Below are positions 7,270 to 45,207 of a stretch of 64,000 nucleotides of DNA, piece after piece. The notes under the pieces were generated by a model. It ran no database searches, was not told the origin of the DNA, and was given only the letters and a program-made list of their open reading frames with translations. The stretch comes from an uncultured virus (IMG/VR IMGVR_UViG_3300028805_000002). Lineage: Duplodnaviria; Heunggongvirae; Uroviricota; Caudoviricetes. Position 1 is the stretch's first letter. Each line of letters begins with the position of its first letter. A program made the translations under genes and the position numbers. The DNA is taken from IMG/VR virus record IMGVR_UViG_3300028805_000002. The stretch is one strand, 5' to 3'.

Positions 7270-8031
7270 ATGGCTATTGAAAGAACGGCTCAAAATCTTG
7301 CTACGTTTTGCTTGCAAGTAGTAGGTACTGCCTATTGGATGGGTTGTTTCGGACAAAGAGCCAGCCGTAGTCTGTATAATCAGAAGAAGTCTGACTACCC
7401 TCAATACTACCCACCCAAGAGTTGGACTGAGGCAAGTTTCGTTGATGATTTCGGAAAGCCTGTGACAGACTGTGCAGGGTTAATCAAGTGGTTCTTATGG
7501 TCTGATAATATGACAAACAAGAACCCTACATACAAGGCTTCTGAAGATTGGGGTGCAACCACAATGTTCAAGAACTGCACAGAGACAGGAAAGATAGGTT
7601 CTTTACCCAAAGAAAAAGTCGGCATACTTGTATTCAATGGAGACGCAAGCACTAAGAAACACGTTGGCGTTATTGTAGACAACAACGGAACAGTAGTCGA
7701 GGCAAAGGGTCACGCATACGGAACGATTAAATCAAATGCGAGTTCTTGGGATTATTGGGGAAAACTCAGACTTATTAAGTATGAGAGCACACCACAGCCT
7801 GCTCCAGAACCGACACCCGAGCCAGAACCCGTTACAGTAAAGACATATAAGGTAGTCAACATTCATACATACTTGGCTATCAGAAGTACGCCTGTGGTCA
7901 CTTCTAATGATGCAAACCTTGTTGGAAAACTCTTTAATGGTGCGTTAGTATCTGTTTTTGAAACAAAGGGTAACTGGGCAAAGATAGGAAGCGGTATGTG
8001 GGTATCTATGTCGTATCTTAGAGCGGTATGA
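7270..8031 (+). CDS. Endolysin: NlpC/P60-type peptidase, Pro-rich linker and SH3b domain
   Basis: DCAGLIK catalytic Cys, HVGV His, VVEAKG; PEP linker; C-terminal SH3-like GNWAKI...WVSMSYL. Confidence 0.85.
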   Translation: MAIERTAQNLATFCLQVVGTAYWMGCFGQRASRSLYNQKKSDYPQYYPPKSWTEASFVDDFGKPVTDCAGLIKWFLWSDNMTNKNPTYKASEDWGATTMFKNCTETGKIGSLPKEKVGILVFNGDASTKKHVGVIVDNNGTVVEAKGHAYGTIKSNASSWDYWGKLRLIKYESTPQPAPEPTPEPEPVTVKTYKVVNIHTYLAIRSTPVVTSNDANLVGKLFNGALVSVFETKGNWAKIGSGMWVSMSYLRAV

Positions 8032-8228
8032 AACTGTATGACTTTGTAGAGAAGGAACTGGAGAGATTTAGAAAGGAGTGCAACTTTACTCCAGATGAAC
8101 TCGAATATTTCAATCTTCGGGCAAAGCATTATAGCAACTTCCAAATCTCATTGAAGATGAACGTATCAGAAAGTAAAGTTTCAAAACTCGCAAAGTCAGT
8201 AAAGAACAAGATACTTAGGGTAATTTAA
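8028..8228 (+). CDS. Small stand-alone LuxR/GerE-like HTH protein
   Basis: FTPDE...SNFQISLKMNVSESKV HTH pattern. Confidence 0.6.
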   Translation: MKLYDFVEKELERFRKECNFTPDELEYFNLRAKHYSNFQISLKMNVSESKVSKLAKSVKNKILRVI

Positions 8229-8252
8229 GTACAATTTTTAAAACTTTTTTGA

Positions 8253-8283
8253 AAAGCAATCGTACAAATACGGTTGCTTTTTT
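8253..8283 (+). terminator. Rho-independent terminator
   Basis: AAGCAATCGTA-caaa-TACGGTTGCTT followed by a T run. Confidence 0.75.
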
Positions 8284-8419
8284 ATTTGTATGCTTATGTC
8301 AAAGGGGAAGGTAATTATGAGAGACATAAGCAACGAACTATTAGAAATAATGGAACGCTACAAATGTAACGAAGTAATTGCTTTCCTTATTTTAATACAG
8401 AGCGAGAAGGTATAAGTCT

Positions 8420-8800
8420 GTGGGTTGGCAATACTATAATCCTAATCCTAAAGCAAATCTTGTAGGTGACTGTGTTGTACGAGCAATCTCGTTGGCTCTT
8501 AATCAAGATTGGGACACATCTTACTTAGGTGTAACTACGCAAGGATATGAATTAAAAGATATGCCATCTTCAAATGCTATTTGGAGTGCTTACTTAAAGC
8601 ATAACGGGTTTAAACGCTACATCATTCCAGACACTTGCCCTGATTGTTATACGGTTAAAGATTTTTGTATTGACAATCCTGAAGGCTTGTATCTTCTTGC
8701 AACAGGCACGCACGTTGTTACTTGTGTAAATGGTGATTACTACGACACTTGGGACAGCGGTAACGAAATTCCAATCTATTACTTTAAGAAGGAGAACTGA
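8420..8800 (+). CDS. Conserved hypothetical protein, possible papain-like Cys/His fold
   Basis: NPNP...GDCVVRAI and THVV...YYDTWDSG motifs. Confidence 0.55.
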   Translation: MGWQYYNPNPKANLVGDCVVRAISLALNQDWDTSYLGVTTQGYELKDMPSSNAIWSAYLKHNGFKRYIIPDTCPDCYTVKDFCIDNPEGLYLLATGTHVVTCVNGDYYDTWDSGNEIPIYYFKKEN

Positions 8801-8802
8801 CA

Positions 8803-9207
8803 ATGGCATTTGGTTACAATCCGTATCAACAGTATTATCAACCCACACAGCAGTATATGCCACAAATGGTTACTAATAATACGCAACAGCAAAATGATGG
8901 CATCACCTGGGTTCAAGGAGAAAACTCTGCAAAATCTTATCCAGTAGCGGCAGGGAGAAGTGTGCTTTTAATGGACAGCGAAAGTCCTGTTATGTATATC
9001 AAGTCAACAGACCAATCAGGTGTTCCTTTGCCGTTGAGAATTTTTGACTACAAAGAACGCTCACAATCGAGTTCTAACGCACAAGAGCAAAAAACAGAAT
9101 ATATCTCACGAAACGAGTTTGACGCGTTTAGAAACGAAATCAGAGCGGAATTAAAGCAATCTAAACAACAGACTAATAACACATATAAGAAAAATAAGGA
9201 GGAGTGA
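8803..9207 (+). CDS. Hypothetical protein with Gln/Tyr-rich N-terminus
   Basis: RBS AAGGAG; WVQGE..AKSYPVA motif. Confidence 0.6.
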   Translation: MAFGYNPYQQYYQPTQQYMPQMVTNNTQQQNDGITWVQGENSAKSYPVAAGRSVLLMDSESPVMYIKSTDQSGVPLPLRIFDYKERSQSSSNAQEQKTEYISRNEFDAFRNEIRAELKQSKQQTNNTYKKNKEE

Positions 9208-9449
9208 TTATGAGTTCACCTCTTTATCAGCAACTTCAACCGCATAATAACTTTATAAGTATGCTCAATCAATTTAAGCAAAACCCAATGTCTATGCTTT
9301 CTCGTAAGTATAACATTCCACAAGATATGACAGACCCAAACCAAATACTTCAGTATTTGCTTAACAGCGGTCAGGTAAGTCAAGAACAGATAAACAGGGT
9401 TATGAAGATGAAGAATGACCCACAATTTCAAAACTTAATTAAGAACTAA
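9204..9449 (+). CDS. Hypothetical Gln/Asn/Met-rich protein
   Basis: Coupled ORF; DPNQILQYLLNSGQVSQEQ. Confidence 0.6.
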   Translation: MIMSSPLYQQLQPHNNFISMLNQFKQNPMSMLSRKYNIPQDMTDPNQILQYLLNSGQVSQEQINRVMKMKNDPQFQNLIKN

Positions 9450-9608
9450 TTAAAAGCGACTCCGCTAAGATATGGGAAGGTAGCACGGAGTCGCTCTCAG
9501 GAAGTAAAAACCGAATGAGAAGTCTAATCACATTGGATATTTCTATTTTAATTCAGTTTTCTATTAGTTGCAACAGTAGATATAAAAATTTATGAAAGGA
9601 GAACTATT

Positions 9609-10460
9609 ATGACTAATGGTTCAGAACAAATGGTAATGCCAGTAGCACCTATGTACGGAAGTGGAAGCAACGGTTTCGGCTCTTGGGGCGGGGACGGTTG
9701 GTGGATTTTACTTCTTCTCTTGTTCGCAGGCGGCGGCTGGGGTAACGGCTTCGGCGGCGGTTTCGGAAACGCTATGTTAGGTTACGATTTTCCTTGGCTT
9801 CTTAATGGACAGTCTGGAATTAACGCAAACACTAACAACGGATTCCAGAACGCTCTGCTCAACGACAATGTTACTTCCATTCGTGATGGAGTATCTGCAT
9901 TATCCACTCAACTCTGTAATTGTTGCGGAGATATTTCTCAGCAGTTGTGTAGCGGATTTGCTGGCGTAACCGCATCTGTAAACGGTGCGCAGAACGCCGT
10001 AGCACAGCAACTTTACACCAATCAGATTGCAGATATGGAAAGAAGTTTCAATGCTCAGACAGCCTCTACACAGGGTATGCAGGCAATTCAGTCTCAGTTG
10101 GCACAGTGTTGCTGTGATAACAAAGCCGCAACGGCAGATGTTAAGTACACAATCGCAACAGAGGCTTGCAATACAAGACAGGCAAATACTGCCAATACTC
10201 AGGCTATTCTTGACAAACTTTGTCAACTTGAACTCGATGGCTATAAGAGGGAGAACGACAATCTCCGTACTCAACTCAATATGGCTACTCTGTCTGCTAG
10301 CCAGACGGCACAGAACGCATTTATCCAAAAGGGTTTCTCTGATGAGGTTGATGCGCTCTACAATAGGCTTTCTAACTGCCCTGTTCCGTCAACACCCGTT
10401 TACGGCAGAACTCCAATTTTCACTTGCAATCAGAATGTAGGTTGCGGTTGCGGAATGTAA
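9609..10460 (+). CDS. Gly-rich membrane-anchored coiled-coil protein with Cys-Cys motifs
   Basis: GGDGWWILLLLLFAGGGWG, CNCC, QCCCD, C-terminal CGCG; strong RBS. Confidence 0.65.
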   Translation: MTNGSEQMVMPVAPMYGSGSNGFGSWGGDGWWILLLLLFAGGGWGNGFGGGFGNAMLGYDFPWLLNGQSGINANTNNGFQNALLNDNVTSIRDGVSALSTQLCNCCGDISQQLCSGFAGVTASVNGAQNAVAQQLYTNQIADMERSFNAQTASTQGMQAIQSQLAQCCCDNKAATADVKYTIATEACNTRQANTANTQAILDKLCQLELDGYKRENDNLRTQLNMATLSASQTAQNAFIQKGFSDEVDALYNRLSNCPVPSTPVYGRTPIFTCNQNVGCGCGM

Positions 10461-14515: not shown

Positions 14516-14675
14516 GTATTCATTCAAAAAGAGTGTAGCACTACATTCTTCTGTCGGTTATTTGGGTCAAGGAAATAACTGATACAACTAAATAACCGAC
14601 TAAACGGGCAATTAGTGTGAGTTCTTGACCAACTCAGACTAATTGCTTTTTTATTACTTATTAGGAGATACGTGT

Positions 14676-15515
14676 ATGCGATATGAAGTATTAGGATTTA
14701 ATCAAGAAAAAGTTGTTGAAGCAGGATTAGATGTAACAGACCTCTTCATCTTAAACTATATTATTCAGGCAAATGGTAATCCAACAATGGAACATATTGT
14801 TAAAGATGGTGTAGCGTATGTTTGGATTTGTCACGATACGTTCTTACAAGATTTGCCTATACTTCCTATTTCACCTGGAACATTTAGAAATATTTTATGT
14901 GACCTTAAACATAAGGGTTTAATAATGTCAGAGACTATTCGACTTGTTAAAGGTGCAAAGTCATATTACTCTGTTACCGCGCTTACGATGTCATTTTTAA
15001 ATGACGTCAGATGTCATTCTGAAATGACATCAGACAATATAACTAGTATATCATCAAATAATATTAAAACAGACACTACGGATATTACTAATAAACAACA
15101 AGAATTATTTAATACTAATAAAGAAGATACATATAAGGAAAAAATCGACCGCTTTGTTGAGGAGTACAACTCTACGTGTAAGTCACTTCCTAAGTGTGTG
15201 AGAATGAGTAGTAAACGTGGTAAAGGCATTCTTAATATTCTCAAGAAATTTTCAGACGAAGAGATTACTGAGGTTTTTAATAAATTAGAAGAGAGTGATT
15301 TTTGTTCTGGAAGAAGCGGTAAGTGGCGAGCAGACATTGATTTTATTTTAAGAGAAGACAAGTTCATTTCAGTTTTAGAAGGAAAATATGATAACAAGAC
15401 GCGTGGTTGTAGTGTAGAGACAATCTCTAGTACAGGTCCGAAATATCGTGTTTCAGCAGAAGAAAAAGAAGAAATGAGAAAGGCGGTAGAACGTGGAGAA
15501 CTCAAGGAATACTGA
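14676..15515 (+). CDS. Replication initiator (N-terminal wHTH, low-complexity linker)
   Basis: Precedes a DnaC-like loader; C-terminal WRADIDFIL...VLEGKYDN motif; ATG 14676 after AGGAGA. Confidence 0.75.
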   Translation: MRYEVLGFNQEKVVEAGLDVTDLFILNYIIQANGNPTMEHIVKDGVAYVWICHDTFLQDLPILPISPGTFRNILCDLKHKGLIMSETIRLVKGAKSYYSVTALTMSFLNDVRCHSEMTSDNITSISSNNIKTDTTDITNKQQELFNTNKEDTYKEKIDRFVEEYNSTCKSLPKCVRMSSKRGKGILNILKKFSDEEITEVFNKLEESDFCSGRSGKWRADIDFILREDKFISVLEGKYDNKTRGCSVETISSTGPKYRVSAEEKEEMRKAVERGELKEY

Positions 15516-16149
15516 TTGTTGGTACGCGAGTAACTGCACCGATGATTGTACTAGATGTGTGATATATCCACAGATGAAGTGGCAATTTGATAATAGCGGA
15601 TTGCCGAAGACTAAGTATATGCCGATACATTTAAGACCACAGCCAGGCGATGTTCGAGCATTTAATAAGTTGGCAGAAGTTCGAGAAAACATAGACGAGT
15701 TTGTTGAGCAAGGAAAGAACTTGTATATCTGCGGTGAGATGCCCGGTAACGGCAAGACTAGTTGGGCAATAAAGATGTTGCAGACATATTTTCATTATGT
15801 TGCTGAAGGAAATCTGTTTACTGTAAAAGGGATGTTTGTCTCTGTTCCAGACTTGCTCTTAAAGATGAAAGACTTTAGCAACCCATTGTCGAGTGAATAT
15901 AAGGAAAATTTAAAGTCGTGCGATTTACTTATTCTTGATGATATAGCAGTAACAGGAATATCGCAGTATGACTATCTGCAATTATTCACTTTAATTGATA
16001 GCAGAATGTTAGCGGGCAAGTCGATTATATTTACATCTAACGTAACAAGTATAAAGAAGTTAGAAGAAATTATCGGTGAGAGATTATCCAGTAGAATATT
16101 CGGTAATAGTTTAGTAGTTGAAATAAAGGGCGGTGATATGCGTGGTTGA
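15493..16149 (+). CDS. DnaC/IstB-like helicase loader ATPase
   Basis: GEMPGNGKT Walker A, LLILDD Walker B, IFTSN, RLSSRI. Confidence 0.85.
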   Translation: MENSRNTDCWYASNCTDDCTRCVIYPQMKWQFDNSGLPKTKYMPIHLRPQPGDVRAFNKLAEVRENIDEFVEQGKNLYICGEMPGNGKTSWAIKMLQTYFHYVAEGNLFTVKGMFVSVPDLLLKMKDFSNPLSSEYKENLKSCDLLILDDIAVTGISQYDYLQLFTLIDSRMLAGKSIIFTSNVTSIKKLEEIIGERLSSRIFGNSLVVEIKGGDMRG

Positions 16150-17467
16150 GTTACAGATAATTGCAAAAATTCTAAAGACAGGTAATTTTGCTCTTGTCGA
16201 AAGCAACGGTATCACTGAAGATTTTTTCAAAGGCAAGAAAGACAGTAAAGGAAAAGAAACAAAAGGATTTGTTGACGAGTACAGATTTATTAAAGACCAC
16301 GTTGAGAAATATGGAAATGTCCCTGATACAGAAACTTTCTTATCCGCTTTTCCGATATATAAAGACGGTGGATTGCCTGACGTATTCGAGAGTGACGAGT
16401 TTTTAGTTGACAAGATACGAGAGGAGCACTTATTCAGACAGGGCGCACCGATATTGCAGAGAGCCGCAGAGATATTCTTGGAAGATGCCAATGCTGGTGT
16501 TGAATATATGCTCAAAGCATTACAAGACCTGCAAGTAAACTATAATCTCGGTGGAACAGATATTATTGCGCAAGCAGACCAGAGATTGGAGCATTTAAAA
16601 GAGCGCATTGAAAATCAAGACCAGTGGTATTTCAGTAGTGGCTTTCCTGAGTTAGACACTGTTATGCACGGCATAAAGCGCGGTGAAGAACTCTTAGTAA
16701 TCTTTGCTCGTACTAATCAGGGCAAGTCCTGGGTTCTTGAGAAGATGATTGCTCACATTTGGAAACAGGGTTTTAATGTCGGCTATATATCTCCTGAGAT
16801 GGGTGCAGACAGTATCGGATATAGATTTGATACGCTGTATAAGGGTTTTTCAAATTCAAACTTGGTATGGGGCAACAAAGACACGGATGTTGACGCATAC
16901 GCACAGTATATTGATGAACTCAAAGAGCAGAAGAATAAATTTGTCGTTGCAACTCCAAAAGACTTTGGCAGAACAATAACTGTAAGCAAATTAAGACAGT
17001 GGGTTAAACAGCAGAAGTTAGAGGCGTTAGCAATAGACGGTATAACTTATCTGACTGACGAGCGAGGAAAAAGAAATGACAATAAGACAACTTCATTGAC
17101 CAACATAAGTGAAGATTTAATGTCGTTGTCTGTTGACCTCGGTATACCGATTTTAGTAGTTGTTCAGGCAAATAGAAACGGTGTAATTGATAAAGACAGC
17201 GATGGCACACCAGAACTTGAAAGTATACGAGACAGTGACGGCATATCTCATAATGCAACGAAAGTTATCTCTTTACGTCAGAAAGACGGCGGACTTGATT
17301 TGAACTTGCCGAAGAATAGAGAAGGACGCGTTAATGTTCGTTTTCGTTATTTATGGAATATTAACACTGGTGAGTTTATTTACACAGAGAACACAGACAC
17401 CGCTACACCAGAAGAGAAAGCAGAACGTAGAGAGCGAAAGAAAGCAACAGGAAAGGATATATTCTAA
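16142..17467 (+). CDS. dnaB: DnaB-like replicative helicase
   Basis: ARTNQGKS Walker A, AIDG, VQANR, DSDGISHNA. Confidence 0.85.
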   Translation: MVELQIIAKILKTGNFALVESNGITEDFFKGKKDSKGKETKGFVDEYRFIKDHVEKYGNVPDTETFLSAFPIYKDGGLPDVFESDEFLVDKIREEHLFRQGAPILQRAAEIFLEDANAGVEYMLKALQDLQVNYNLGGTDIIAQADQRLEHLKERIENQDQWYFSSGFPELDTVMHGIKRGEELLVIFARTNQGKSWVLEKMIAHIWKQGFNVGYISPEMGADSIGYRFDTLYKGFSNSNLVWGNKDTDVDAYAQYIDELKEQKNKFVVATPKDFGRTITVSKLRQWVKQQKLEALAIDGITYLTDERGKRNDNKTTSLTNISEDLMSLSVDLGIPILVVVQANRNGVIDKDSDGTPELESIRDSDGISHNATKVISLRQKDGGLDLNLPKNREGRVNVRFRYLWNINTGEFIYTENTDTATPEEKAERRERKKATGKDIF

Positions 17468-18429
17468 TGCAGATAAACGATATTATCATTGACGCTGATG
17501 TATCAGAAATCTTGACTGCGCTTAGAGAACAACTAGCCGAGCACGGAATAATGCGGTTTGAGAAGATAGTTGATAGCGGCGAAGATGTTATGGTTCAGTG
17601 TCCATATCACAAAGACGGACAAGAGCGTAGACCAAGTGCTGGCATAAGAAAGTCCGATGGTTTGCTTCATTGTCTTGCGTGTGGAGAAACACACTCATTA
17701 CCAGAAGTCATAGGTTTTTGCTTTGGTCGTGATATGTTTTTTGGCTATAACTGGCTTATGAAAAACTTTGGTGCTTTATCAGAACAAGACAGACAACCAA
17801 TAAATCTAAACTTATCAAGAACACCTAGTATATCTGTGCAGGAGTATGTGTCTGAAGATGAACTTGACAGTTATCGGTATACGCATCCTTATATGTATGA
17901 GCGAGGACTGACTGATGAAATTATTGAGATGTTTGACATAGGATATGATAAGAGTACAGACAGCATCACATTTCCAGTCAGGGATATTAAAGGCAACACA
18001 TTATTCGTTGCGCGTAGAACAATTAAGTATAAGAGTTTTAACATTCCTAAAAACGTAGATAAACCCTTATATGGTGATTACGAATTGTCACAGTTACTTC
18101 AAACAAAAGAAGGTGTTGACAAGTTTAAAGAAGTGTATGTGTGTGAGGGATTATTCGATTGTTTGAGATTATGGTGTGTAGGAAAGTATGCAGTAGCGGG
18201 GTTCGGGTGTTTGTTTAGTGATAAGCAGATAAAAGACTTATGCGAGTTACCTACACGTAAACTTATCTTTGCACTGGATAATGATAAGGCAGGAATATCT
18301 GCAACAGAGCGATTGAAGAAATTAGTCAGAGGAAAAATTATGACAACGGCAATACTTCCGTATAATCGCAAAGATATTGGTGAGTGTACCGATGACGAAC
18401 TCAAAAATTTGCGTGAAACTCTTTATTGA
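17467..18429 (+). CDS. dnaG: DNA primase (CHC2 zinc finger and TOPRIM)
   Basis: CPYH...CLAC, VCEGLFD, LDNDKAG, KDIGE. Confidence 0.9.
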   Translation: MQINDIIIDADVSEILTALREQLAEHGIMRFEKIVDSGEDVMVQCPYHKDGQERRPSAGIRKSDGLLHCLACGETHSLPEVIGFCFGRDMFFGYNWLMKNFGALSEQDRQPINLNLSRTPSISVQEYVSEDELDSYRYTHPYMYERGLTDEIIEMFDIGYDKSTDSITFPVRDIKGNTLFVARRTIKYKSFNIPKNVDKPLYGDYELSQLLQTKEGVDKFKEVYVCEGLFDCLRLWCVGKYAVAGFGCLFSDKQIKDLCELPTRKLIFALDNDKAGISATERLKKLVRGKIMTTAILPYNRKDIGECTDDELKNLRETLY

Positions 18430-18508: not shown

Positions 18509-19210
18509 ATGGGCAGACTACTTGGTGACAACATTGAACAGTTCAGCACAGGAAGTGGCGGTGGAAAGGGCAGTTATTTTTCGTTGAAGAACGATAAAGA
18601 AACTGCAAGAGTACGTTTTCTTTACGAGAGCGCAGGAGACATTGAGGGTTTCACTGTTCACAAAGTAAGAGTTGGAGACAGAGACAGATACGTTAATTGT
18701 ATTGCAGATGAAGGAGAGTGTCCGTTCTGTCGCGCAGGTCTTCAGAAGTTTGTTAAGATTTTTGTACCGCTGTTTAACGAGACAACAGGACAACTTCAGA
18801 CTTGGGAAAGAGGACAGAAGTTCTACGGCAAACTCTCTGGTTTGTGTTCAAGATACAACAATCTTACTTCTCGTGTATTTGAGATTGAGCGTAATGGCAA
18901 GCCTAAGGACACACAGACAACGTATGAGATTTATCCTGTAGGTGATGCAGACGGCACAACTCTTGATGATATTCTTGACGATTGTGGCGTTGATGAACTC
19001 GCAAATCCTCTCGGCACAATCATTCTCAACAAGACCGCAGACGATATGGAATATTATCTCAGAAACGAGGATTTTCCGAGCAAGGACGAAGCACCAGTTA
19101 GACGTAGAGGCAGAGCAGAAGAGCCTGATGATTTGCCGTTTGAAGCAGAAGAGGAAGAAAGACCGCGCAGAGAGGGCAGAACTGGTAGAGGTAGAGCCAG
19201 AGGTTTCTAA
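18509..19210 (+). CDS. Single-stranded DNA-binding protein (gp32-like)
   Basis: YFSLKND..ARVRFL, CPFC, RNG...TTYEI, acidic DDLPF tail. Confidence 0.75.
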   Translation: MGRLLGDNIEQFSTGSGGGKGSYFSLKNDKETARVRFLYESAGDIEGFTVHKVRVGDRDRYVNCIADEGECPFCRAGLQKFVKIFVPLFNETTGQLQTWERGQKFYGKLSGLCSRYNNLTSRVFEIERNGKPKDTQTTYEIYPVGDADGTTLDDILDDCGVDELANPLGTIILNKTADDMEYYLRNEDFPSKDEAPVRRRGRAEEPDDLPFEAEEEERPRREGRTGRGRARGF

Positions 19211-21534
19211 TGAAGCAGATTTCATTGTTTGACGATTTAAGTCGGCCAGATAAGTCCGAAGACATAGCACTCGTCAAGAAGTCCAATTCTAAATCTAAGA
19301 AGATTACTCCCACAAAGAAAAGTGGGAGTTTATCTTCTAAGATAAAATTTATCCGTGAGTTTGTTGAGCAGTATCTTGGCAAGTATAGAGATAAATACAT
19401 CTGTATTCGAGACGTTGATACATTACATAAATATGTTGATACGTGTCTTGCAGATGGAAGAATTGCGCTTGATACAGAGACAACAGGACTTAATGTGTTT
19501 CAAGATAAAATCGTAGGAATAAGTTTGACTTCTAAAAACAATAAACCCGCGTACATTCCAATAAATCACGTTATTTACAATGTTGCAGACAACTCTTTTA
19601 CGCTGGCTGAAAATCAGTTGACGATAGAGCAGATACTTCCAGAGTTGAAAAGACTGGCTAACGTGTCTGAAGTCGATATGTTTAACGCCGTATTCGATAA
19701 GCGCGTTATAAAGCACGGATTTGGAATTTACTTTCCTTGCACTTTTGATACTTCTATTGGCGCAAAGATGCTGAATGAGTTGAAGCCGCCGAAGTGGTAT
19801 AAACTTAAAATCGTTCACTGTGAGTGGTGTCTTGACGGTAAGGAAGACGAGTTCTCATTTGACGAACTTTTTAACGATGTTGGATTTGATAAAGTGCCTA
19901 TTGACGTTGGTTATTTGTATGCGTGTCGTGACGCGGAGATTACTTATGAGTTGTCAGACTTTGAGCGTCAATATCTGTATTACAATCCAGAGCAGGATTT
20001 TAGTGCAAGAAATGGTATGAACGGTGCGTCTTGGTGTTTCTTCAATATAGAGATGCCTTGTGAAGATGCTACAATGGAACTCGAAGAAAACGGCGTTACG
20101 CTTGATTTGGAGTATCAAAAACAACTCTCTATTAGGTATCATCAACTCGAAGAAGATGTGCTGAAAAAGTTTAACGAGAGTTTACTGCCATATCAAGACA
20201 CAATAAACGCATTACGTAGTAGAGGTGCTAAACTCGACAATCCAATAAACATCAACAGTACGTCACAGTTGCCTATTCTGTTGTATGACATCTTGGGACT
20301 TGATGCTGGAATAAATAAAAGAACAAAGAAACCCGAGCGCGGTACAGGAGAAGAAGTATTAGCAAAACTTAATCACCCTATTGTTGACATTATTAAAGAG
20401 TATCGAGGCGTTAAGAAACTTATTAGCACGTATATAGATAAGTTGCCTAAGTGTCTTGAGAGCGACGGAAAGATACACGGACAGTTTCATCAATATGGTG
20501 CAAGAACAGGTAGATTTAGTTCATCAGACCCAAATCTTCAAAACATACCGAGTAAGAACAAAGACATACGACCGATGTTCGTTGCAAGTCCGGGACATCT
20601 TTTGATTTCAATGGACTATTCACAGCAAGAGCCTTCTTGTCTTGCGTCATTCTGCAAGAAAATGGGATATGATGCGTTGTTCAATGCAAGATTTAAGGGC
20701 AACGATTTGTATAGTGAGGTTGCTAGTGCTATCTTCAATTTGCCTTATGAGGACTGTGTTGAGCATAGAGCAGACGGCAGTATCAATAAAGAAGGCAAGA
20801 AGAGAAGAAACGACGCAAAGCCAGTTCTTTTGGGCATCTTGTATGATAGAGGAGATGATAGCGTAGCAGAGGCACTCGATATTTCATTAGAAGAGGCAAA
20901 GCGACTTCATCAAAATCTGTATAAAAGATTTCCAGAGATATTGGTTTTTGAGCAAGAAAGTGTTAAGATGGCAACAGAGTTGGGTTACGTTGATACAATC
21001 TGTGGACGTAAGTGTAGAATACCTGATATGTTACTTGACGAGTACGAGTTTGAATGGGTAGACGCACCGAAGAATGATGATGTGCTCGATTTCGAGAATG
21101 ACGTTGACACACAGGTGCCAGATGACTTATGCGACAAGTATTGGAACAAGTTACATCGAAAGTATGCTAAGAAAAGAGAAATCTTTAAAGAAGCCAACGA
21201 AAAAGACGGAATATGGATTATTGATAACAGAACAAAGATAGCAGACGCTACAAGACAATGTGTTAATAGTCGTATTCAAGGAAGTGCCGCAGACCTTACG
21301 AAGAAAGCGATGCAAGAGGTACTTAAAAATAAGAGACTGACGGAACTTGGATTTAAGTTGATAATTCAAGTACACGACGAACTTATTGGCGAGTGTCCAG
21401 AAGAGAACATCAAAGAGTGTTCGGAGTTATTAGCAGAAGTAATGTCTAAGGCCGCAGAAGAGTTGATTGGTATGCCGTTCTCTTGTGACGCAGAGATTTC
21501 ACGCGCTTGGTACGGTGAAAGATATGAAATTTAA
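19210..21534 (+). CDS. polA: Family A DNA polymerase with 3'-5' exonuclease
   Basis: DTETTG, TGRFSSSDPNLQNIP, DYSQQE, IQGSAAD, QVHDE; N-terminal QISLF. Confidence 0.95.
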   Translation: MKQISLFDDLSRPDKSEDIALVKKSNSKSKKITPTKKSGSLSSKIKFIREFVEQYLGKYRDKYICIRDVDTLHKYVDTCLADGRIALDTETTGLNVFQDKIVGISLTSKNNKPAYIPINHVIYNVADNSFTLAENQLTIEQILPELKRLANVSEVDMFNAVFDKRVIKHGFGIYFPCTFDTSIGAKMLNELKPPKWYKLKIVHCEWCLDGKEDEFSFDELFNDVGFDKVPIDVGYLYACRDAEITYELSDFERQYLYYNPEQDFSARNGMNGASWCFFNIEMPCEDATMELEENGVTLDLEYQKQLSIRYHQLEEDVLKKFNESLLPYQDTINALRSRGAKLDNPININSTSQLPILLYDILGLDAGINKRTKKPERGTGEEVLAKLNHPIVDIIKEYRGVKKLISTYIDKLPKCLESDGKIHGQFHQYGARTGRFSSSDPNLQNIPSKNKDIRPMFVASPGHLLISMDYSQQEPSCLASFCKKMGYDALFNARFKGNDLYSEVASAIFNLPYEDCVEHRADGSINKEGKKRRNDAKPVLLGILYDRGDDSVAEALDISLEEAKRLHQNLYKRFPEILVFEQESVKMATELGYVDTICGRKCRIPDMLLDEYEFEWVDAPKNDDVLDFENDVDTQVPDDLCDKYWNKLHRKYAKKREIFKEANEKDGIWIIDNRTKIADATRQCVNSRIQGSAADLTKKAMQEVLKNKRLTELGFKLIIQVHDELIGECPEENIKECSELLAEVMSKAAEELIGMPFSCDAEISRAWYGERYEI

Positions 21535-21546
21535 GGAGGTAACCGT

Positions 21547-22284
21547 ATGTCTAACATTGACAATGTAGTTCCAGGAGACAAGTGGGAATTTGACGCTGAA
21601 GTAGCCGACTGTTTTTCTGATATGCTGTCACGCTCTATTCCTCAGTATGACGTTATGCGTGACACATCCGCAAGTCTGGCCACTGACATTATTCAGCAGA
21701 ATAACGCGTATCGAGATTTTAATTTGCTCGATATTGGTTGCTCTGACGGACTTATGATACAAACGCTGTTGCAGAAGTTGAAAGGTAACAAGGGAAGAAT
21801 ATTGGGTGTAGATGTTTCTGAGCCGATGTTACAGAAAGCAGAGGAGAGATTTAAACTCAATAACGGTGTATCAAGTATTTCCGTTGCTATTCAGAATTGC
21901 GATTTACGTTATGCGTTTCCTAAGAACAACTATGACGTAATCACATCCATTCTTTCAATTCAGTTTATACCGATTGAGTATAGACAGACGATACTTCAAA
22001 ACATCTATGATAACTTAGTTCCCGGCGGTGCTTTTATCTTTGTTGAGAAAGTTCTGGGCAATACAGCAGAGTTGAACAAGTTATTTGTTAAGGAATACTA
22101 CGACTTAAAGAAACAGAATGGATATTCAGAAGACCAGATTGAGCGTAAGCGATTATCTCTTGAGGGTGTTCTTGTACCAGTAACGAGCGATTGGAACAAA
22201 TCCCTGTTACAGCAAGCAGGTTTCAGACAGATTGATGATTTTTGGAGGTGGATGAACTTTGTCGGATATATTGCAATCAAATGA
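21547..22284 (+). CDS. cmoA: Carboxy-S-adenosylmethionine synthase (CmoA family)
   Basis: WEFDAEVA..F.DMLSRSIPQY, DIGCSDG, SIQF, PGGAFIFVEK, NGYS..QI..KRLSLEGV, WMNF match the CmoA pattern along the whole length. Confidence 0.88.
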   Translation: MSNIDNVVPGDKWEFDAEVADCFSDMLSRSIPQYDVMRDTSASLATDIIQQNNAYRDFNLLDIGCSDGLMIQTLLQKLKGNKGRILGVDVSEPMLQKAEERFKLNNGVSSISVAIQNCDLRYAFPKNNYDVITSILSIQFIPIEYRQTILQNIYDNLVPGGAFIFVEKVLGNTAELNKLFVKEYYDLKKQNGYSEDQIERKRLSLEGVLVPVTSDWNKSLLQQAGFRQIDDFWRWMNFVGYIAIK

Positions 22285-23260
22285 GTCTTTGACCGCTGTT
22301 GACTTGTTTTGTGGTGCTGGTATCGGTGCTTATGGTATAAAGAAAGCAGGTTACAATATTTTATTTGGTGTTGACAATGACGAGTTCGCTGTTGAGACAT
22401 ACAATACAAATATTGGTAATCACGCAATCTGTCAGGATATTCGTAAACTAAAATCGTCAGATATTCCTGAGCACGATTTGATGATAGCAACGCCCGTATG
22501 TAAGCCGTTTTCTGTGTGTGGTGCAAGACGATTAACAAATGACGAGAAGTATGGTGACTTGTTAGCCGAGACACTTCGTATATTTTCAGAGTGCAAGCCT
22601 AAAGCACTGTTCTTTGAGAATGTTGCAGGTCTTGTAATGGATAAGAGTTTGCCAATCTTTTTAGAGTTTGTTGAGCAGATACAAGACTATGGTTATTGTG
22701 TTTATTGGAATACATTTAACTGTTGGGATTACGGTGTACCGCAAGAGCGTGTAAGAGTGTTTCTCGTGGCAATTAGGACAGACATTCCAAATGAGTTTAT
22801 ATGGCCTGAGCCACTTGTACGAAACAAGGCCGTTATGCGTGATGCAATCTACGATTTAAAGGATAAGACAATCGCAGATATTAAAAATCATAACACGGAC
22901 TATGTAAAGCACTTCGACAATGCAATGGTTGTTAAACATAGACAGCGTGGTTGGGACGAGCCTGCTATGACTGTTTTGTCCGATGCAGATAGTCAGCAGT
23001 ATTATCCAGAGCCTAAGATAACAGATTGGAAAGACTTTGATAATATGCCGAGAAGAATGTCAGTAAGAGAACATTTGCGATTACAGACTGTCGGCGATGA
23101 CTTTTATTTTCCTGATGATGTGCCGTTGCGCGAGCAGTATATCCGTTGCTCTGGCGTACCAAGTCTGATGGCATACAAGATAGGAACAGCAATTAAAGAG
23201 TGTCTTTTGGGCAAAACGCCTATTAGAACATACGAAAGAAAGCAACAGACATTATTTTAA
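22259..23260 (+). CDS. C5 DNA cytosine methyltransferase-family enzyme; predicted carboxymethyltransferase
   Basis: Motif I DLFCGAG, IV TPVCKPFS, VI FENV, VIII PQERVRVF; atypical motif X QYIRCSGVP; TTG start after GGAGGTG, overlapping cmoA. Confidence 0.85.
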   Translation: MSDILQSNESLTAVDLFCGAGIGAYGIKKAGYNILFGVDNDEFAVETYNTNIGNHAICQDIRKLKSSDIPEHDLMIATPVCKPFSVCGARRLTNDEKYGDLLAETLRIFSECKPKALFFENVAGLVMDKSLPIFLEFVEQIQDYGYCVYWNTFNCWDYGVPQERVRVFLVAIRTDIPNEFIWPEPLVRNKAVMRDAIYDLKDKTIADIKNHNTDYVKHFDNAMVVKHRQRGWDEPAMTVLSDADSQQYYPEPKITDWKDFDNMPRRMSVREHLRLQTVGDDFYFPDDVPLREQYIRCSGVPSLMAYKIGTAIKECLLGKTPIRTYERKQQTLF

Positions 23261-23272: not shown

Positions 23273-24343
23273 ATGTCAACATTTACAACGGAATCATTAA
23301 AGAAACTGGTATCATACGCAATCCAGGGCGCAGGTCTTAACGACAAGATTGAACTCTCAAAGTACATTGGAATAAGAATTTCTGATGGCGTGATTTATCT
23401 TAACACGACAGACGGCGAGAACTTTTTAAGCGTGTCGGACACTTGCGTTGCTGATGATATGGACATTACGTTAGATGCCGATACGTTTTCAAAACTTATT
23501 GGTAAGATTAACTCTGACACAGTAGACCTTGATATGGTTGATAACACTCTTGTAGTAAAGGGAAACGGCAAGTACACACTCGAACTTATCACAGATGACG
23601 CTGGAAATACTCTGTCATTTCCAGATAGATTTCCTGAACTGTCAGAAACACTTGGAAACATTAGTGCTGAGGACTTGCTTGCAATAAATACAACTATTAA
23701 GGCATCACTGAGTACAGTTGTTGGTAGCACATATTCATCATATTATTTTGGAAGTGTTGTCGCAAGCACAGACAGAGTTATGATGTCCATTTTTAATCGT
23801 AGTGTGTTTGACGAGCCTTATATGCTTAACAGGCAGTTTGTTGATTTAATGTGTCTCGGCAATTCACCTGTTGTGCTGTCAAAATCAGAGAACACTATTG
23901 TGTCAGAGGCGCAGATAACCGATTCCTGCACAATTAGTGTATGCACAAGGCTTACAACTAACACTTCTGATTTTAGGCTTGACGTAATTCAGAAGTTTAA
24001 TGCACTTACAACGGACTCATTTTGTCGATTTAAGAGAGCGGATATGCTTAGTCTCCTTGATAGACTTTCTTTGTTCGTAAGCAGATTTGATGATGGTGCG
24101 ATTGAACTTCACTTCACCGATAAGTATGTTGAGGTTTCTTCATTAAAGAGTAATGGCGTAGAACGTGTCGATTATACAGAGAGCAAAGACATAAAGGACA
24201 TCACGATAAAGATTAACATTGATAGGTTTAGAAATCAGTTAAAGGCGTATAGTTCTGATATTGTTGATTTGTATTATGGAAGTGACGTTTGCATTAAGTT
24301 GATTGATGGAGATATGACGCAGATTATTGCTTTAATTAAGTAA
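23273..24343 (+). CDS. DNA sliding clamp (DnaN/beta-like)
   Basis: 356 aa; TTDG and STDR repeat positions and overall layout of a beta clamp; clamp-loader genes present. Confidence 0.7.
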   Translation: MSTFTTESLKKLVSYAIQGAGLNDKIELSKYIGIRISDGVIYLNTTDGENFLSVSDTCVADDMDITLDADTFSKLIGKINSDTVDLDMVDNTLVVKGNGKYTLELITDDAGNTLSFPDRFPELSETLGNISAEDLLAINTTIKASLSTVVGSTYSSYYFGSVVASTDRVMMSIFNRSVFDEPYMLNRQFVDLMCLGNSPVVLSKSENTIVSEAQITDSCTISVCTRLTTNTSDFRLDVIQKFNALTTDSFCRFKRADMLSLLDRLSLFVSRFDDGAIELHFTDKYVEVSSLKSNGVERVDYTESKDIKDITIKINIDRFRNQLKAYSSDIVDLYYGSDVCIKLIDGDMTQIIALIK

Positions 24344-35375: not shown

Positions 35376-35450
35376 TGAGGTGTCGCCAAGCGGTAAGGCA
35401 TTGGTCTTTGACTCCAACACTCGTAGGTTCGATTCCTGCCACCTCAGCCA
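35376..35450 (+). tRNA. tRNA-Gln (TTG)
   Basis: TGAGGTG/CACCTCA acceptor, GCCAAGCGGTAAGGC D arm, CT-TTG-AC loop, GGTTCGATTCC, encoded CCA. Confidence 0.92.
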
Positions 35451-39339: not shown

Positions 39340-39723
39340 TTACAAGAACTCTTTTAGTGGTCTAAGTCTAAAATCTGTTTCATCACACGAAACCCACCAC
39401 TCTCCGTCTTTGAATACATAGTTGTATTCTTCCCAGGTTCTAAAGTGTTCCAAATCTGATGCAGATATTACTAATTCTTCTCCTCTGTCTCGATGATACG
39501 CAACACACTGGTCAGGATTAGGTGTGTTAAAGTCTGTCTTAACTCCGATTGTTTCGTCTAACGAAGATAAATCTCCGAGAGCAATTAGTTTTTGTACTTC
39601 TTCTCTTGTGGTGTAACATCTGTTCAGAATGTCTCCATTGTGCTCGATATATCCATCCCAATGACAGTAGATAGATTTTACTGCGCCGTTCTCATAAATG
39701 CCTATTCTTGAATTTGTACTCAT
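39340..39723 (-). CDS. Conserved phage hypothetical protein
   Basis: MSTNSRIG...SIYCHWDGY...AYHRDRGE...EYNYVF; RBS AGGAGG. Confidence 0.7.
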   Translation of the reverse strand: MSTNSRIGIYENGAVKSIYCHWDGYIEHNGDILNRCYTTREEVQKLIALGDLSSLDETIGVKTDFNTPNPDQCVAYHRDRGEELVISASDLEHFRTWEEYNYVFKDGEWWVSCDETDFRLRPLKEFL

Positions 39724-39749
39724 TTGATTATTCCTCCTGTTTTCTAATG

Positions 39750-39941
39750 TTATGTTTTTTCTGTTGGCCAAGAACACGGACAGTCCCCGAATATGCAAGT
39801 CACGGTTTTGCCCGTATAGTCTTTCGCTATCCATTTAATACTATATCTGCATCCTCTACACTTATAGTTTCTGCTGGTACAGTAATCTTTAATTGGTTGT
39901 ATTGCTTCTTTCGATAGTGACTCTGTTGGATTCCACATCAA
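39750..39941 (-). CDS. Small Cys-rich hypothetical protein
   Basis: YC...CRGC...CIF..CPCSW. Confidence 0.5.
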   Translation of the reverse strand: MMWNPTESLSKEAIQPIKDYCTSRNYKCRGCRYSIKWIAKDYTGKTVTCIFGDCPCSWPTEKT

Positions 39942-39942
39942 C

Positions 39943-40161
39943 TTATGCCTCCTTGCCTACAAATAAGTCAACTGGAAACAGATTATCAGGACACCCAATC
40001 TTATAGTGTCTGTTGTTTGCCTGAATTGTTCCGTTTACCAATCCTATTGCTAAGTATTCTTCATTTCCAGCCGCATACGCCTCTGGATTATACTTTTTGT
40101 ACAGTGCGCGAATATCCTCAAGACGAGCCACTAGTTCACGTTCAAAATCTTCTTTGGTCAT
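39943..40161 (-). CDS. Hypothetical protein
   Basis: RBS AAGGAG. Confidence 0.55.
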   Translation of the reverse strand: MTKEDFERELVARLEDIRALYKKYNPEAYAAGNEEYLAIGLVNGTIQANNRHYKIGCPDNLFPVDLFVGKEA

Positions 40162-40261
40162 TCTTCTTCTCCTTTCATATCTTCTACTTCATCTTGCAGT
40201 CTTTCAATAGGAATAATAACTCCGTTTGTCATTCTTCCCATTCGCAATCAACAACAAATGT

Positions 40262-40468
40262 CTAGGCATTGTCGATAAGCAAAAGGACTTCTTCAAAGGG
40301 CAAACCCTTGTTTGCTATTTCCGTCATTAAAGTACGGAACATTATCAAATCACCCTCGGTTATGGGTGTGCCGTTCTTAATGGTACTCATCATACGAGTA
40401 ATATTCATACCATCGTAATTGCAGATTTTATTATATTCTTCTTCGGGTATATCAATTATCAGTTTCAT
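40262..40468 (-). CDS. Hypothetical protein
   Basis: MKLIIDIPEE...IKNGTP motif. Confidence 0.55.
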   Translation of the reverse strand: MKLIIDIPEEEYNKICNYDGMNITRMMSTIKNGTPITEGDLIMFRTLMTEIANKGLPFEEVLLLIDNA

Positions 40469-40470
40469 AG

Positions 40471-40710
40471 TTATGCCTCCGTCATCGCATATTTAATGTC
40501 GCTGATTACCTGCTCAGGGTCGTTTTTGAGCAGGTATCTAATGTCTGTCTTCATCTTCTCTCGGCGTGACTTTACGCTTATGTCTCCGTAAAAATCAAGA
40601 ACACCATACGGGTCAAATTCATCATAGAACTTTACCAGACTTTCAATAAGTTCAGGCGAAAATCTTTTCTTGCCTTTGCCGATTTCTTCAAGCATCTTCT
40701 CGTTGGTCAT
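40471..40710 (-). CDS. Hypothetical protein
   Basis: RBS GGAGGTGA before MTNEK. Confidence 0.55.
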   Translation of the reverse strand: MTNEKMLEEIGKGKKRFSPELIESLVKFYDEFDPYGVLDFYGDISVKSRREKMKTDIRYLLKNDPEQVISDIKYAMTEA

Positions 40711-40715
40711 TGTTA

Positions 40716-40973
40716 TCACCTCCAATAAGTTCCTTCACGAATGAACTGCTCTGTTCCATAGAGTATTTCAGGCTTTGTTGCTCCATCACACACACCTGCT
40801 ACTCGAAGTAAGTAACGCTCTGCTCCACTAAGGGTCTTGTATGTGCGCAACGCTATGCACAGTGTGCCTTTTTCGCTCTTGTGCATTTCCGCTACTACAT
40901 ATTTTCCTAACTGATACATAATGCAATATGTCTTGGTCTTATACTTCTTCATATAGGCAAATTCAGTTTTCAT
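40716..40973 (-). CDS. Hypothetical protein
   Basis: RBS AGGAGGAG; YKTLSGAERYL. Confidence 0.55.
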   Translation of the reverse strand: MKTEFAYMKKYKTKTYCIMYQLGKYVVAEMHKSEKGTLCIALRTYKTLSGAERYLLRVAGVCDGATKPEILYGTEQFIREGTYWR

Positions 40974-41099
40974 TCTTTTTTATCTCCTCCTTTTTAGGCT
41001 CGCAGGGTACGCCAATTGCTATTATGGCACGTAAGGTTTCAGTGTATCGCTCGCGCTTACACTCTTCATACAACCATTCGGGAATATCAATTATTAACT

Positions 41100-41819
41100 T
41101 CATTGTTCTTCTCCTTTCTTCTTTTCTTTTACATAAGCATTTCCGTCTTTGTCTAAAGATACTCCGAGTTCCTTTAACAACTGAGTGTATTGTGCTCTGT
41201 AATTTGCCTCACTGTAATTTTCCGAGTTAAACGTATACAGCAGGTCGTTCAGCATTAACAGTTTTTCCAGTTTGTTTCTCTGTTCTGGTGTAGTACACAG
41301 TCCTTGGTCTCTAATGTACGTGAGTCCGTCATAGTCACTGGCATTGTACTCTTCACAAAGTCCTGCAAGACCTGTTAATGTTGTTTTCTTGCGCTCAGGA
41401 TTTACATCAGGTCTCTTTGTTATAGCACTGACGCTGAACTCGCCTGTATATTCACTTTTCCACCATTTTTCTGTATCACATCCTCCGCTCGGTTTCTTAT
41501 ACTTTTTTGCTGGACAGGTATGACAGTTAGTATGGGGACATTTGTGTGTACTCGGAGTAAGACCAAACACCTTTGTATACATCGCTAAGTTGGATGTCTC
41601 AGGACAGTCCTTGTCTTCGGGAGCGTTTGTAATCATATCGTGATTTATCCACAACGTATGGGGTTCACCGTTACGCTCAAACTTTATTCGTATGTCTAAT
41701 GACCTATCTTCCTCGTCTAATTCGTCTACTTCGAGCCTGTCCACATCCGCATAAGTAGGCCATTCTTTTTTGCCTTTTTCAGTCCAAACTACAATATCGC
41801 CTTCTTCAAAGGGTATCAT
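41100..41819 (-). CDS. Modular hypothetical protein, paralog of 44238-45206
   Basis: Shared C-terminal GL.GLCEEYN...LGV.LDK.GNAYVK domain. Confidence 0.65.
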   Translation of the reverse strand: MIPFEEGDIVVWTEKGKKEWPTYADVDRLEVDELDEEDRSLDIRIKFERNGEPHTLWINHDMITNAPEDKDCPETSNLAMYTKVFGLTPSTHKCPHTNCHTCPAKKYKKPSGGCDTEKWWKSEYTGEFSVSAITKRPDVNPERKKTTLTGLAGLCEEYNASDYDGLTYIRDQGLCTTPEQRNKLEKLLMLNDLLYTFNSENYSEANYRAQYTQLLKELGVSLDKDGNAYVKEKKKGEEQ

Positions 41820-42127
41820 TTTATATCTCCTTTCGCTCTTGAGCCATCTATGATGTACGTACTGCTCGGCGTTTCGATGCGCGTCATAATTTCGCCTGTT
41901 TTGTCATTCACGTACTTCCAAGCGACAGAGAATCCCCAGCCGTTGTGACTGATGATATGAAAGTTCGTTCCGTTCACGGCGTCACACCACGCTTTGCAGT
42001 CACGCATAGCAGACGCCTTAGCCGACGAGTATCTGCCATACACGTCATCTAAGTCCGTGCCTTCAAAACGACTTGCTCTTGCTAATAACGCCTGTCCTGT
42101 CTTTGTTGAACCTTTGATAATTTTCAT
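41816..42127 (-). CDS. Hypothetical protein
   Basis: LDDVYGRYSSAK...IISHN..FSV motif. Confidence 0.6.
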   Translation of the reverse strand: MKIIKGSTKTGQALLARASRFEGTDLDDVYGRYSSAKASAMRDCKAWCDAVNGTNFHIISHNGWGFSVAWKYVNDKTGEIMTRIETPSSTYIIDGSRAKGDIK

Positions 42128-42154
42128 AGTGTACTGCCTCTCTTTCCTTTTTAT

Positions 42155-43288: not shown

Positions 43289-43290
43289 AC

Positions 43291-45206: not shown

Positions 45207-45207
45207 T

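Follow-up and report, generated by a model that had tools for sequence, protein, structure and literature searches.

An overlapping CmoA–methyltransferase gene pair in an uncultured phage: a candidate DNA carboxymethylation system with a divergent methyltransferase

The DNA analyzed here (the window) is the 64,000-nucleotide stretch of IMG/VR record IMGVR_UViG_3300028805_000002, from an uncultured virus of the Caudoviricetes. Within its replication genes are two overlapping genes, one encoding a homolog of CmoA, the synthase of carboxy-S-adenosylmethionine (Cx-SAM); the other encodes a homolog of C5-cytosine DNA methyltransferases (C5-MTases). Judging from sequence comparisons, this MTase is probably a variant Cx-SAM-dependent DNA carboxymethyltransferase that makes 5-carboxymethylcytosine (5cxmC), and no ligase accompanies it in the window. 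Both the chemistry and its distribution in phages have been described before, and because this type of system has been published the finding is not categorically new. What appears to be new is the class of MTase, referred to here as RCSG after its motif X, which lacks both of the features by which the published candidates were selected.

The precedent is the CmoA/CmoX/CmoY system of Synechococcus phage S-B43, which provides natural phage 5cxmC and was described in Nature Communications in December 2025 (PMC12783734; PDB 8YF3; GenBank MN018232.1). A first, sequence-only reading of the window had pointed to a CmoA-linked carboxymethyltransferase from a cyanophage, and this is evidently that system. 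Cx-SAM is the product of SpCmoA and the sole cofactor accepted by SpCmoX, which carboxymethylates cytosine C5 at GC sites, and SpCmoY ligates glycine to 5cxmC in DNA, its known substrate; virion DNA contains the glycine amide only, and no 5cxmC (PMC12783734). In the 8YF3 crystal structure, Arg350 occupies the place of Asn304 in M.HhaI and contacts the carboxymethyl group, and the R350N variant is inactive. The same study gathered 5,615 candidate CmoX proteins by means of an SPPC motif together with Arg350, and it also refers to M.MpeI N374K, in which a change at the motif X Asn lets a C5-MTase use Cx-SAM (PMC12783734).

The gene pair of the window and its principal elements are arranged as follows.

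21533..21539, plus strand: Shine-Dalgarno sequence AAGGAGG of the CmoA-like gene, read from the sequence
21547..22284, plus strand: CmoA-like gene, predicted carboxy-SAM synthase, 245 amino acids, ATG start
22150..22152, plus strand: codon for CmoA Arg202, the equivalent of E. coli CmoA Arg199 by alignment with 4gek
22244..22248, plus strand: Shine-Dalgarno sequence GGAGG of the MTase gene, within the CmoA gene
22259..22284, plus strand: 26-nucleotide overlap of the CmoA 3′ end and the MTase 5′ end
22259..23260, plus strand: RCSG-class homolog of C5-cytosine DNA methyltransferases, predicted to act as a carboxymethyltransferase, 333 amino acids, TTG start
22490..22513, plus strand: motif IV, TPVCKPFS, with the catalytic Cys81
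22616..22624, plus strand: motif VI, ENV
22742..22756, plus strand: motif VIII, QERVR (QxRxR)
23135..23161, plus strand: motif X, QYIRCSGVP

The overlap of the two genes, already noted in the sequence-only reading, is confirmed, and the coordinates given there match two open reading frames (ORFs) exactly. Because of these 26 shared nucleotides, translation of CmoA and the MTase is likely to be coupled. The start assigned to the MTase is consistent among its relatives, which share the same N terminus.

The CmoA-like protein is a predicted carboxy-SAM synthase. By far its best NCBIfam match is TIGR00740 (CmoA), with an E value of 9.7e-46 and 156.4 bits over model positions 14-239 of 239. This score falls under the curated cut-off of 193.3, but the assayed SpCmoA scores lower still (115.6 bits), and since that enzyme is active the cut-off is too strict for phage members of the family. 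The best relatives of solved structure are Haemophilus influenzae YecO (1im8) and Escherichia coli CmoA (4gek/4iwn), with E values from 5e-30 to 1e-25; identity to SpCmoA is 28% (E 3e-28), and phrog_4752 is matched at E 1.4e-72. In E. coli CmoA, Arg199 forms a salt bridge to the cofactor carboxylate, and contacts to the SAM moiety are described for Tyr39, Asp62, Gly64, Ser66, Asp89, Asp117 and Asn132, while Glu164 is a further cofactor contact (PMC3663124). When aligned with 4gek, the window protein retains the equivalents of Arg199 (Arg202, codon verified), Glu164 (Glu167) and Tyr39 (Tyr34), and it likewise keeps Asp62, Gly64, Ser66, Asp89 and the Asp of CDLR. The position of Asn132 is occupied by Ser134, and SpCmoA has Ser there too. 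As an aside, the active SpCmoA (L004:7083-7778) has Glu in the Arg199 column of the alignment, with basic residues two and four positions farther on, and at this site the window protein is nearer to the bacterial pattern than the characterized phage enzyme is.

A role for this CmoA in tRNA modification was considered and rejected. As the sequence-only reading had stated, no CmoB-like family is found in the window, here among 66 Pfam-scanned ORFs (all long ones included) drawn from 113 candidate ORFs of at least 45 amino acids. The sole tRNA gene of the window, at 35376-35450, is tRNA-Gln with anticodon UUG, which is not among the tRNAs that carry 5-oxyacetyluridine (cmo5U). The Cx-SAM/CmoB step of cmo5U synthesis is tied to Gram-negative bacteria (PMC6158493), a restriction that would fit a phage of a Gram-positive host bringing a CmoA of its own.

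The MTase is a complete PF00145 protein (E 1.8e-57). Its motifs, read back from the DNA, are DLFCGAGIGAYG, TPVCKPFS, ENV, QERVR and QYIRCSGVP, with motif IX also present; the catalytic set of motif I (FxGxG), Cys81, ENV and QxRxR is intact, which bears out the earlier description of a retained catalytic Cys (PVC), ENV and QxRxR. The departures from the norm of 5-methylcytosine (m5C) enzymes lie elsewhere. In motif IV, the usual Pro-Cys-Gln, which is present in most Asn-bearing enzymes among the 60 nearest representatives, has become Val-Cys-Lys, with Val before Cys81 and Lys82 after it. Motif X has the form QYxRCSGVP, having lost its Gly-Asn in a loop that is shorter by one residue. In M.HhaI, Gln82, Tyr254 and Asn304 crowd the transferable group, and Gln82 and Asn304 stand beside it (PMC3526304); the two changed positions of the window MTase are therefore positions of the cofactor pocket. 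Metagenomic relatives with 60-89% identity retain both TPVCK and the RCSG form of motif X without exception (18 of 18), and in these 18 family members Arg296, Cys297, Ser298 and Gly299 are each invariant, as are ENV, Q162, R164 and R166.

By overall resemblance, the nearest solved structure is that of the m5C enzyme M.HaeIII, both in sequence (1dct, E 1.4e-35 over residues 13-315, against E 2.3e-13 for SpCmoX, 8yf3) and in fold. An AlphaFold2 model of the window MTase (mean predicted local distance difference test score 77, predicted template-modeling [TM] score 0.84) has 1dct as its top Foldseek match (TM 0.77), with 8yf3 in sixth place (TM 0.69). This likeness and the intact catalytic motifs would suit an ordinary SAM-dependent m5C enzyme, next to which CmoA would drain SAM, make Cx-SAM as a weapon against SAM-dependent host defenses or feed host tRNA modification. 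We consider this explanation quite unlikely. Its tRNA variant is at odds with the lack of a detected CmoB and the identity of the single phage tRNA, both described above, and the overlap of the two genes in one operon and the survey data given below argue against the explanation as a whole.

Comparison with SpCmoX, to which the window MTase is 24% identical, shows a mixture of agreement and divergence. The window enzyme shares with the CmoX proteins a C5-MTase fold with its catalytic Cys and a genomic link to CmoA. In place of SPPC (S95 P96 P97 C98 in SpCmoX) it has TPVC, and opposite Arg350 stands Ser298 or a gap, according to BLASTP, a MAFFT alignment with 45 CmoA-linked MTases, and hhalign. 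When the nearest Asn-bearing clade (QYRIVGNGV) is used for comparison, Ser298 aligns with the Asn itself and the loop is one residue shorter. The Arg of the window motif, Arg296, falls instead opposite Arg347 of SpCmoX in both MAFFT and hhalign; Glu346, Arg347 and Arg350 are all invariant in an alignment of 12 SpCmoX-type sequences, and Arg347 goes without mention in the main text and supplement 1 of PMC12783734. The sequence-only reading had proposed that motif X lost its Asn and gained an Arg in the manner of M.MpeI N374K. The loss of Asn stands, the placement of Arg at the Asn position does not, and the proposed analogy to N374K fails with it, since Arg296 corresponds to R347 and the R350 position to Ser298.

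The pocket around the transferred group thus appears to have been rebuilt along different lines than in SpCmoX, with Ser298, a shorter loop, Arg296 and, in the subclade of the window enzyme, Lys82. On this basis we tentatively propose, at somewhat less than even confidence, that RCSG enzymes make up another natural class of DNA cytosine C5-carboxymethyltransferases, distinct in structure from the first, whose Arg296 reads the Cx-SAM carboxylate without Arg350, perhaps with help from Lys82 in the subclade; that the signature of SPPC plus R350 misses whole classes; and that unamidated 5cxmC is the final base in this phage. A general role for Lys82 in binding the carboxylate was rejected, as RCSG enzymes with Thr or Gln at this position also reside beside CmoA.

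A small, uncharged Ser at the Asn position, with no Arg350 to exclude SAM, could also be read as the mark of a promiscuous enzyme that accepts SAM and Cx-SAM alike, CmoA merely shifting the mixture toward 5cxmC, so that phage DNA would hold both 5-methylcytosine and 5cxmC. Engineered MTases with opened pockets do retain some methylation activity (PMC3526304), and RCSG enzymes occur both with and without a nearby CmoA. SpCmoX, on the other hand, is strictly dependent on Cx-SAM (PMC12783734), and all assessable members of the subclade to which the window belongs are tightly coupled to CmoA, as described below, which speaks for Cx-SAM as a necessity and not an option. We judge dual cofactor use to be improbable.

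The relationship between motif X and CmoA can be followed from either gene. On the CmoA side, 492 of 551 pattern matches in IMG/VR encode a relative of CmoA, and the best 80 loci were used. A C5-MTase lies in the fetched flanks at 45 of these 80, and its motif X has Arg at the Asn position in 40 cases, RCSG in four and an aberrant C terminus in one. Asn is found in none of the 45, which is difficult to reconcile with ordinary methylation.

On the MTase side, a search of 1.84 billion representatives returned 29,321 hits, and the nearest 61 (P0108, the top-ranked representative of the clade, and the next 60) were inspected. Among these, RCSG is paired with several versions of motif IV (TPVCK, TPTCK, GFPCT, GFPCQ and GFPCK), and one enzyme, P0123, has SPVCK together with Gly-Asn. 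Seven diverse RCSG enzymes, aligned, also served as the query for scans of three contig collections, loci being counted where motif X could be seen. In viral_contigs, a CmoA-like gene is adjacent at 12 of 12 RCSG loci and at 0 of 8 other C5-MTase loci, and the best NCBIfam match of the adjacent gene is TIGR00740 in every case; this count leaves out L009, which is cut inside the MTase, and L013, which is cut upstream. In genome_contigs, CmoA accompanies the single RCSG locus, on an Aneurinibacillus plasmid, and none of 61 others. The corresponding figures for metagenome_contigs are 24 of 38 RCSG loci (37 recognized by pattern and one, L192, with RCSGAP, by eye) against 0 of 32 Asn-bearing loci, with nine further loci unclassified; L238, read by eye, is of the Asn type and has no CmoA. 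Taken over the same scans, about 100 Asn-bearing relatives include none with CmoA nearby, a second observation that runs counter to an ordinary m5C enzyme. Some contigs recur in the IMG/VR and metagenome sets (for example, L102/L193 and L105/L217) and the subclade of the window itself accounts for many of the loci, so the independent lineages are far fewer than the loci.

Within that subclade the association is close. Every metagenomic TPVCK locus with more than 1 kb of upstream DNA has CmoA, and the gene order PolA-CmoA-MTase(-clamp) is found in 8 of 8 IMG/VR relatives with upstream DNA, at PolA identities down to 39%; the contig of the eighth, L009, breaks off within the MTase gene, and the clamp gene is not seen. 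Overall, the RCSG motif tracks CmoA, imperfectly. Among the 14 metagenome RCSG loci without CmoA, nine have less than 1 kb of upstream sequence, and two of these begin with a CmoY-like gene.

Further support for a carboxylated product comes from relatives of the window that encode a CmoY-like amide ligase. Such a gene is present at ten related loci, two viral and eight metagenomic, the latter being seven RCSG loci and L186, with MTases up to 78% identical to that of the window. At L005 and L009, the CmoY-like gene resides between those for CmoA and the MTase, and its product at L005 shares 27% identity with SpCmoY (E 4e-23) and has a weak Asn_synthase match. Ligases of this kind need a carboxyl group on DNA, and their occurrence at ten loci between CmoA and this type of MTase is not what an ordinary m5C enzyme would predict. 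Mixed operons point in a similar direction. At L195 (5222-9127), one CmoA gene is followed in tandem by MTases of the RCSG type, the SpCmoX type (GSPPCC, ERIGRAVPP) and a third type (YPCK, ERAGRGIV); L209 (49-3662) has CmoA and CmoY with one MTase each of the SpCmoX and RCSG types; and L204 (1601-4462) has CmoA, an RCSG-type MTase and a third-type MTase. These arrangements match what would be expected if all three classes draw on one cofactor and have different targets. Together with the S-B43 precedent, the conserved gene pair and the lack of Asn in the 45 CmoA-adjacent enzymes, the ligases of these relatives lend weight to the proposal of the sequence-only reading that a CmoA-fed C5-MTase writes carboxymethylcytosine.

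The same ligases raise the question of whether 5cxmC is the end product in this phage. Conceivably it is an intermediate, whose carboxyl is elaborated into a hypermodified base by an unrecognized enzyme other than CmoY or by a gene that lies beyond the window. S-B43 sets an example in that its virion DNA held only the glycine amide and not 5cxmC (PMC12783734), and the CmoY-like genes of close relatives, the many window ORFs that have no family assignment and the chance that the window falls short of the whole genome are all compatible with further processing. Nevertheless, this option is rather unlikely. The sequence-only reading reported no amide-ligase-like gene next to the pair, and the wider search agrees with it: the 66 scanned ORFs include no Asn-synthase-like family or other adenylating ligase, and tblastn with two CmoY protein queries finds no CmoY in the window at E <1. 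Where CmoY is present in relatives it lies between CmoA and the MTase, the place at which the two genes of the window overlap cleanly, as they do in several relatives. Because no CmoY-like ligase was found in the 64 kb, 5cxmC itself is probably the final base.

Evolutionary relationships were evaluated with a tree of 62 rows and 315 columns from a quick IQ-TREE search. The RCSG enzymes and P0123 form a clade (SH-like approximate likelihood ratio test support 99) that is sister to an Asn-bearing group. The 12 SpCmoX-type enzymes group together in another part of the free tree, with support of 100, and L017 and L070 occupy a third place. A single clade of RCSG and SpCmoX-type enzymes is not rejected by the approximately unbiased (AU) test (p-AU 0.211, a difference of 14 in log likelihood), and for that reason no independent origin of the RCSG class is claimed. 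The Glu-Arg that precedes the motif X loop in both classes could equally be inherited.

Several observations weigh against the assignment of the window MTase as a carboxymethyltransferase with 5cxmC as its final product. Arg350, the only residue whose contact with the carboxylate is established for SpCmoX, has no equivalent in the window enzyme, and position 82 varies among RCSG enzymes, where Thr and Gln occur besides Lys. The sister clade, which bears Asn, has an Arg near the corresponding position (QYRIVGN), and Arg296 is therefore not necessarily a novel adaptation. No C5-MTase lies near 14 of the 38 viral CmoA loci whose flanks reach at least 4 kb on each side, and five metagenomic RCSG loci (L189, L202, L208, L213 and L216) have no CmoA within flanks of at least 3.7 kb on both sides (3.7-6 kb). 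All five keep Pro-Cys-Gln, and their neighbors are mostly ORFans. With these exceptions a perfect rule linking RCSG to CmoA was rejected; either CmoA is encoded elsewhere or supplied by the host at such loci, or some RCSG enzymes use SAM. Both sets of unpaired genes are what an ordinary m5C enzyme beside an otherwise employed CmoA would lead one to expect, and depletion of SAM by CmoA was itself raised as a possibility in the Discussion of the S-B43 paper (PMC12783734). Finally, the contigs of relatives measure 64-73 kb, so the window may lack several kilobases of the genome, and a ligase could be encoded there.

On the reading favored here, in which the window MTase is a Cx-SAM-dependent carboxymethyltransferase, the pathway would consist of three steps. 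By homology, the CmoA-like enzyme would turn SAM and host prephenate into Cx-SAM. The MTase, to judge from its genomic context and the changes in its pocket, would then move the carboxymethyl group from Cx-SAM to C5 of cytosines in newly replicated phage DNA, with the intact C5-MTase machinery (the nucleophile Cys81, ENV and QxRxR) performing the chemistry and with Arg296, aided in this enzyme by Lys82, possibly reading the carboxylate. In the third step, 5cxmC would be left unamidated as the final base and would block host restriction, a form of protection suggested by the finding that 5cxmC blocks HhaI in vitro (PMC12783734).

The terminase and the composition of the window bear on the host and on the sites that might be modified. 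The nearest relatives of the terminase come from Blautia and Clostridium phages and from fecal phage contigs, which makes a Gram-positive anaerobe of the gut the probable host. Over positions 1-64000, several short palindromes are nearly absent by comparison with Markov expectations (in parentheses): AGCT occurs 0 times (145), GATC once (193), CATG twice (174), CCGG 12 times (71), GGCC 20 times (84), GAATTC 0 times (12.5) and CTGCAG once (12.5). GCAGC and GCTGC jointly occur 4 times where 55 are expected. GCGC (139 against 157 expected) and TCGA are not depleted. From this pattern of site depletion it follows that the phage also relies on site avoidance. As the depleted AGCT contains GC, modification of GC sites at large, as in S-B43, seems unlikely here. 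Likewise, GGCC, the HaeIII site, does not suggest itself as the MTase target, being itself four-fold depleted.

The pair is embedded in a tightly packed replication operon, and its position between genes for a DNA polymerase and a sliding clamp, another point made in the sequence-only reading, is confirmed by the matches of its neighbors.

14643-15515, plus strand: DnaD/replication-initiator-like gene
Between the DnaD-like and DnaB-type helicase genes, plus strand: IstB-like loader gene
16133-17467, plus strand: DnaB-type helicase
17467-18429, plus strand: primase
18509-19210, plus strand: single-stranded DNA-binding (SSB)-like protein
19210..21534, plus strand: PolA, family A DNA polymerase with 3′-5′ exonuclease (PF00476 [DNA_pol_A], E 1.5e-86; PF01612, E 3.2e-10)
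23273..24343, plus strand: clamp-like DNA polymerase processivity factor (phrog_947, E 8.5e-24; no Pfam match)

The PolA stop codon (TAA, 21532-21534) overlaps the ribosome-binding site of CmoA, and the clamp gene starts 12 nucleotides past the MTase stop. Genes for clamp-loader subunits and for RecU-like and RecA-like proteins are found farther along the replication module, and terminase, portal and scaffold genes occupy 56-63 kb of the window, whose G+C content is about 40%. Between the large terminase and portal genes is a DUF4417 protein (58221-58838, E 8.5e-53), which also matches phrog_940, annotated "nuclease." A block of minus-strand genes at 39340-53700, encoding AAA, FtsK-like, DUF7192, AAA_5 and pentapeptide-repeat/DUF5758 proteins, shows a reversal of GC skew together with an elevated G+C content (0.41-0.45). 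The segment 19210-24343 has no megablast match in 50,697 phage records, and the nearest protein relatives among named phages are only 37.8% (MTase) and 44.7% (CmoA) identical; the genes around the Afa-NA1 CmoA added no information.

Some related loci display unusual architectures of their own. In RCSG MTases of 650-690 amino acids (proteins P0129 and P0136; loci L201:2130-4079 and L203:133-2082), an intein-like insert of about 330 residues, ending in His-Asn followed by Cys, adjoins the catalytic Cys in motif IV. Others, 554 amino acids long (P0124; L102, with its MTase at 7971-9635, L103 and L193), have a C-terminal ParB-like extension and are preceded by a CmoY-like gene and by a short, divergent CmoA homolog of 207 amino acids (TIGR00740, E 7e-12). 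At three of four MTase-less viral CmoA loci examined, CmoA is beside a phrog_5475 protein of 505-519 amino acids (L047:3455-5008, L045:2971-4488 and L029:6526-8085), which consists of a ParB_N domain and about 400 residues of no assigned function and is encoded next to terminase genes; it may be another user of Cx-SAM. The PolA match at L012:2083-5298 is split by about 1 kb, suggesting an inserted element, and the CmoA matches at L011:5227-5966 and L181 are split over two reading frames.

Should RCSG enzymes indeed use Cx-SAM, natural 5cxmC would extend beyond the published signature, reaching phages whose terminase relatives infect gut Clostridia, and annotation rules based on SPPC and R350 would miss at least two CmoA-linked classes, the RCSG type and the FPC/YPC...ERxGR type. 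Such enzymes would supply a second natural template for Cx-SAM-dependent DNA labeling, with the basic residue placed differently, and their specificities may differ from the GC specificity of SpCmoX. The Arg found in both classes (window 296, SpCmoX 347) lends itself to testing as a candidate shared determinant. If RCSG enzymes prove not to use Cx-SAM, the pair still offers a clear system in which to look for other functions of CmoA in phages.

Among known systems, that of S-B43 is the closest parallel. Both have a phage CmoA homolog beside a C5-MTase homolog, no CmoB, a motif X without Asn and an invariant Arg in common (window Arg296, SpCmoX Arg347), and the order CmoA-CmoY-MTase is found in relatives of the window. 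The two differ in that the window MTase is without SPPC and Arg350 and has Lys after the catalytic Cys, in that the window has no detected CmoY, and in their hosts, a cyanobacterium for S-B43 and probably, by the terminase relatives, a gut member of the Bacillota for the window phage. In M.MpeI N374K the basic residue replaces the Asn itself, whereas the window enzyme has Ser there and basic residues elsewhere (Arg296 and Lys82). The engineered M.HhaI variant Q82A/Y254S/N304A, made for extended SAM analogues, is altered at positions that include the two changed in the window enzyme (PMC3526304), but it was opened by small residues, whereas the window enzyme has Lys at the first of these positions and Ser at the second. 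The E. coli CmoA/CmoB pathway to cmo5U in tRNA (PMC3663124) has in common with the window the Cx-SAM synthase fold and the cofactor-contacting residues; the window differs in having no detected CmoB and in that the predicted acceptor is cytosine in DNA rather than 5-hydroxyuridine (ho5U) in tRNA. The ordinary m5C enzyme M.HaeIII (1dct, 3ubt) matches the window MTase in domain order and has a similar target-recognition region. Unlike the window MTase, it has the canonical Pro-Cys-Gln and Gly-Asn, and we know of no CmoA partner for it.

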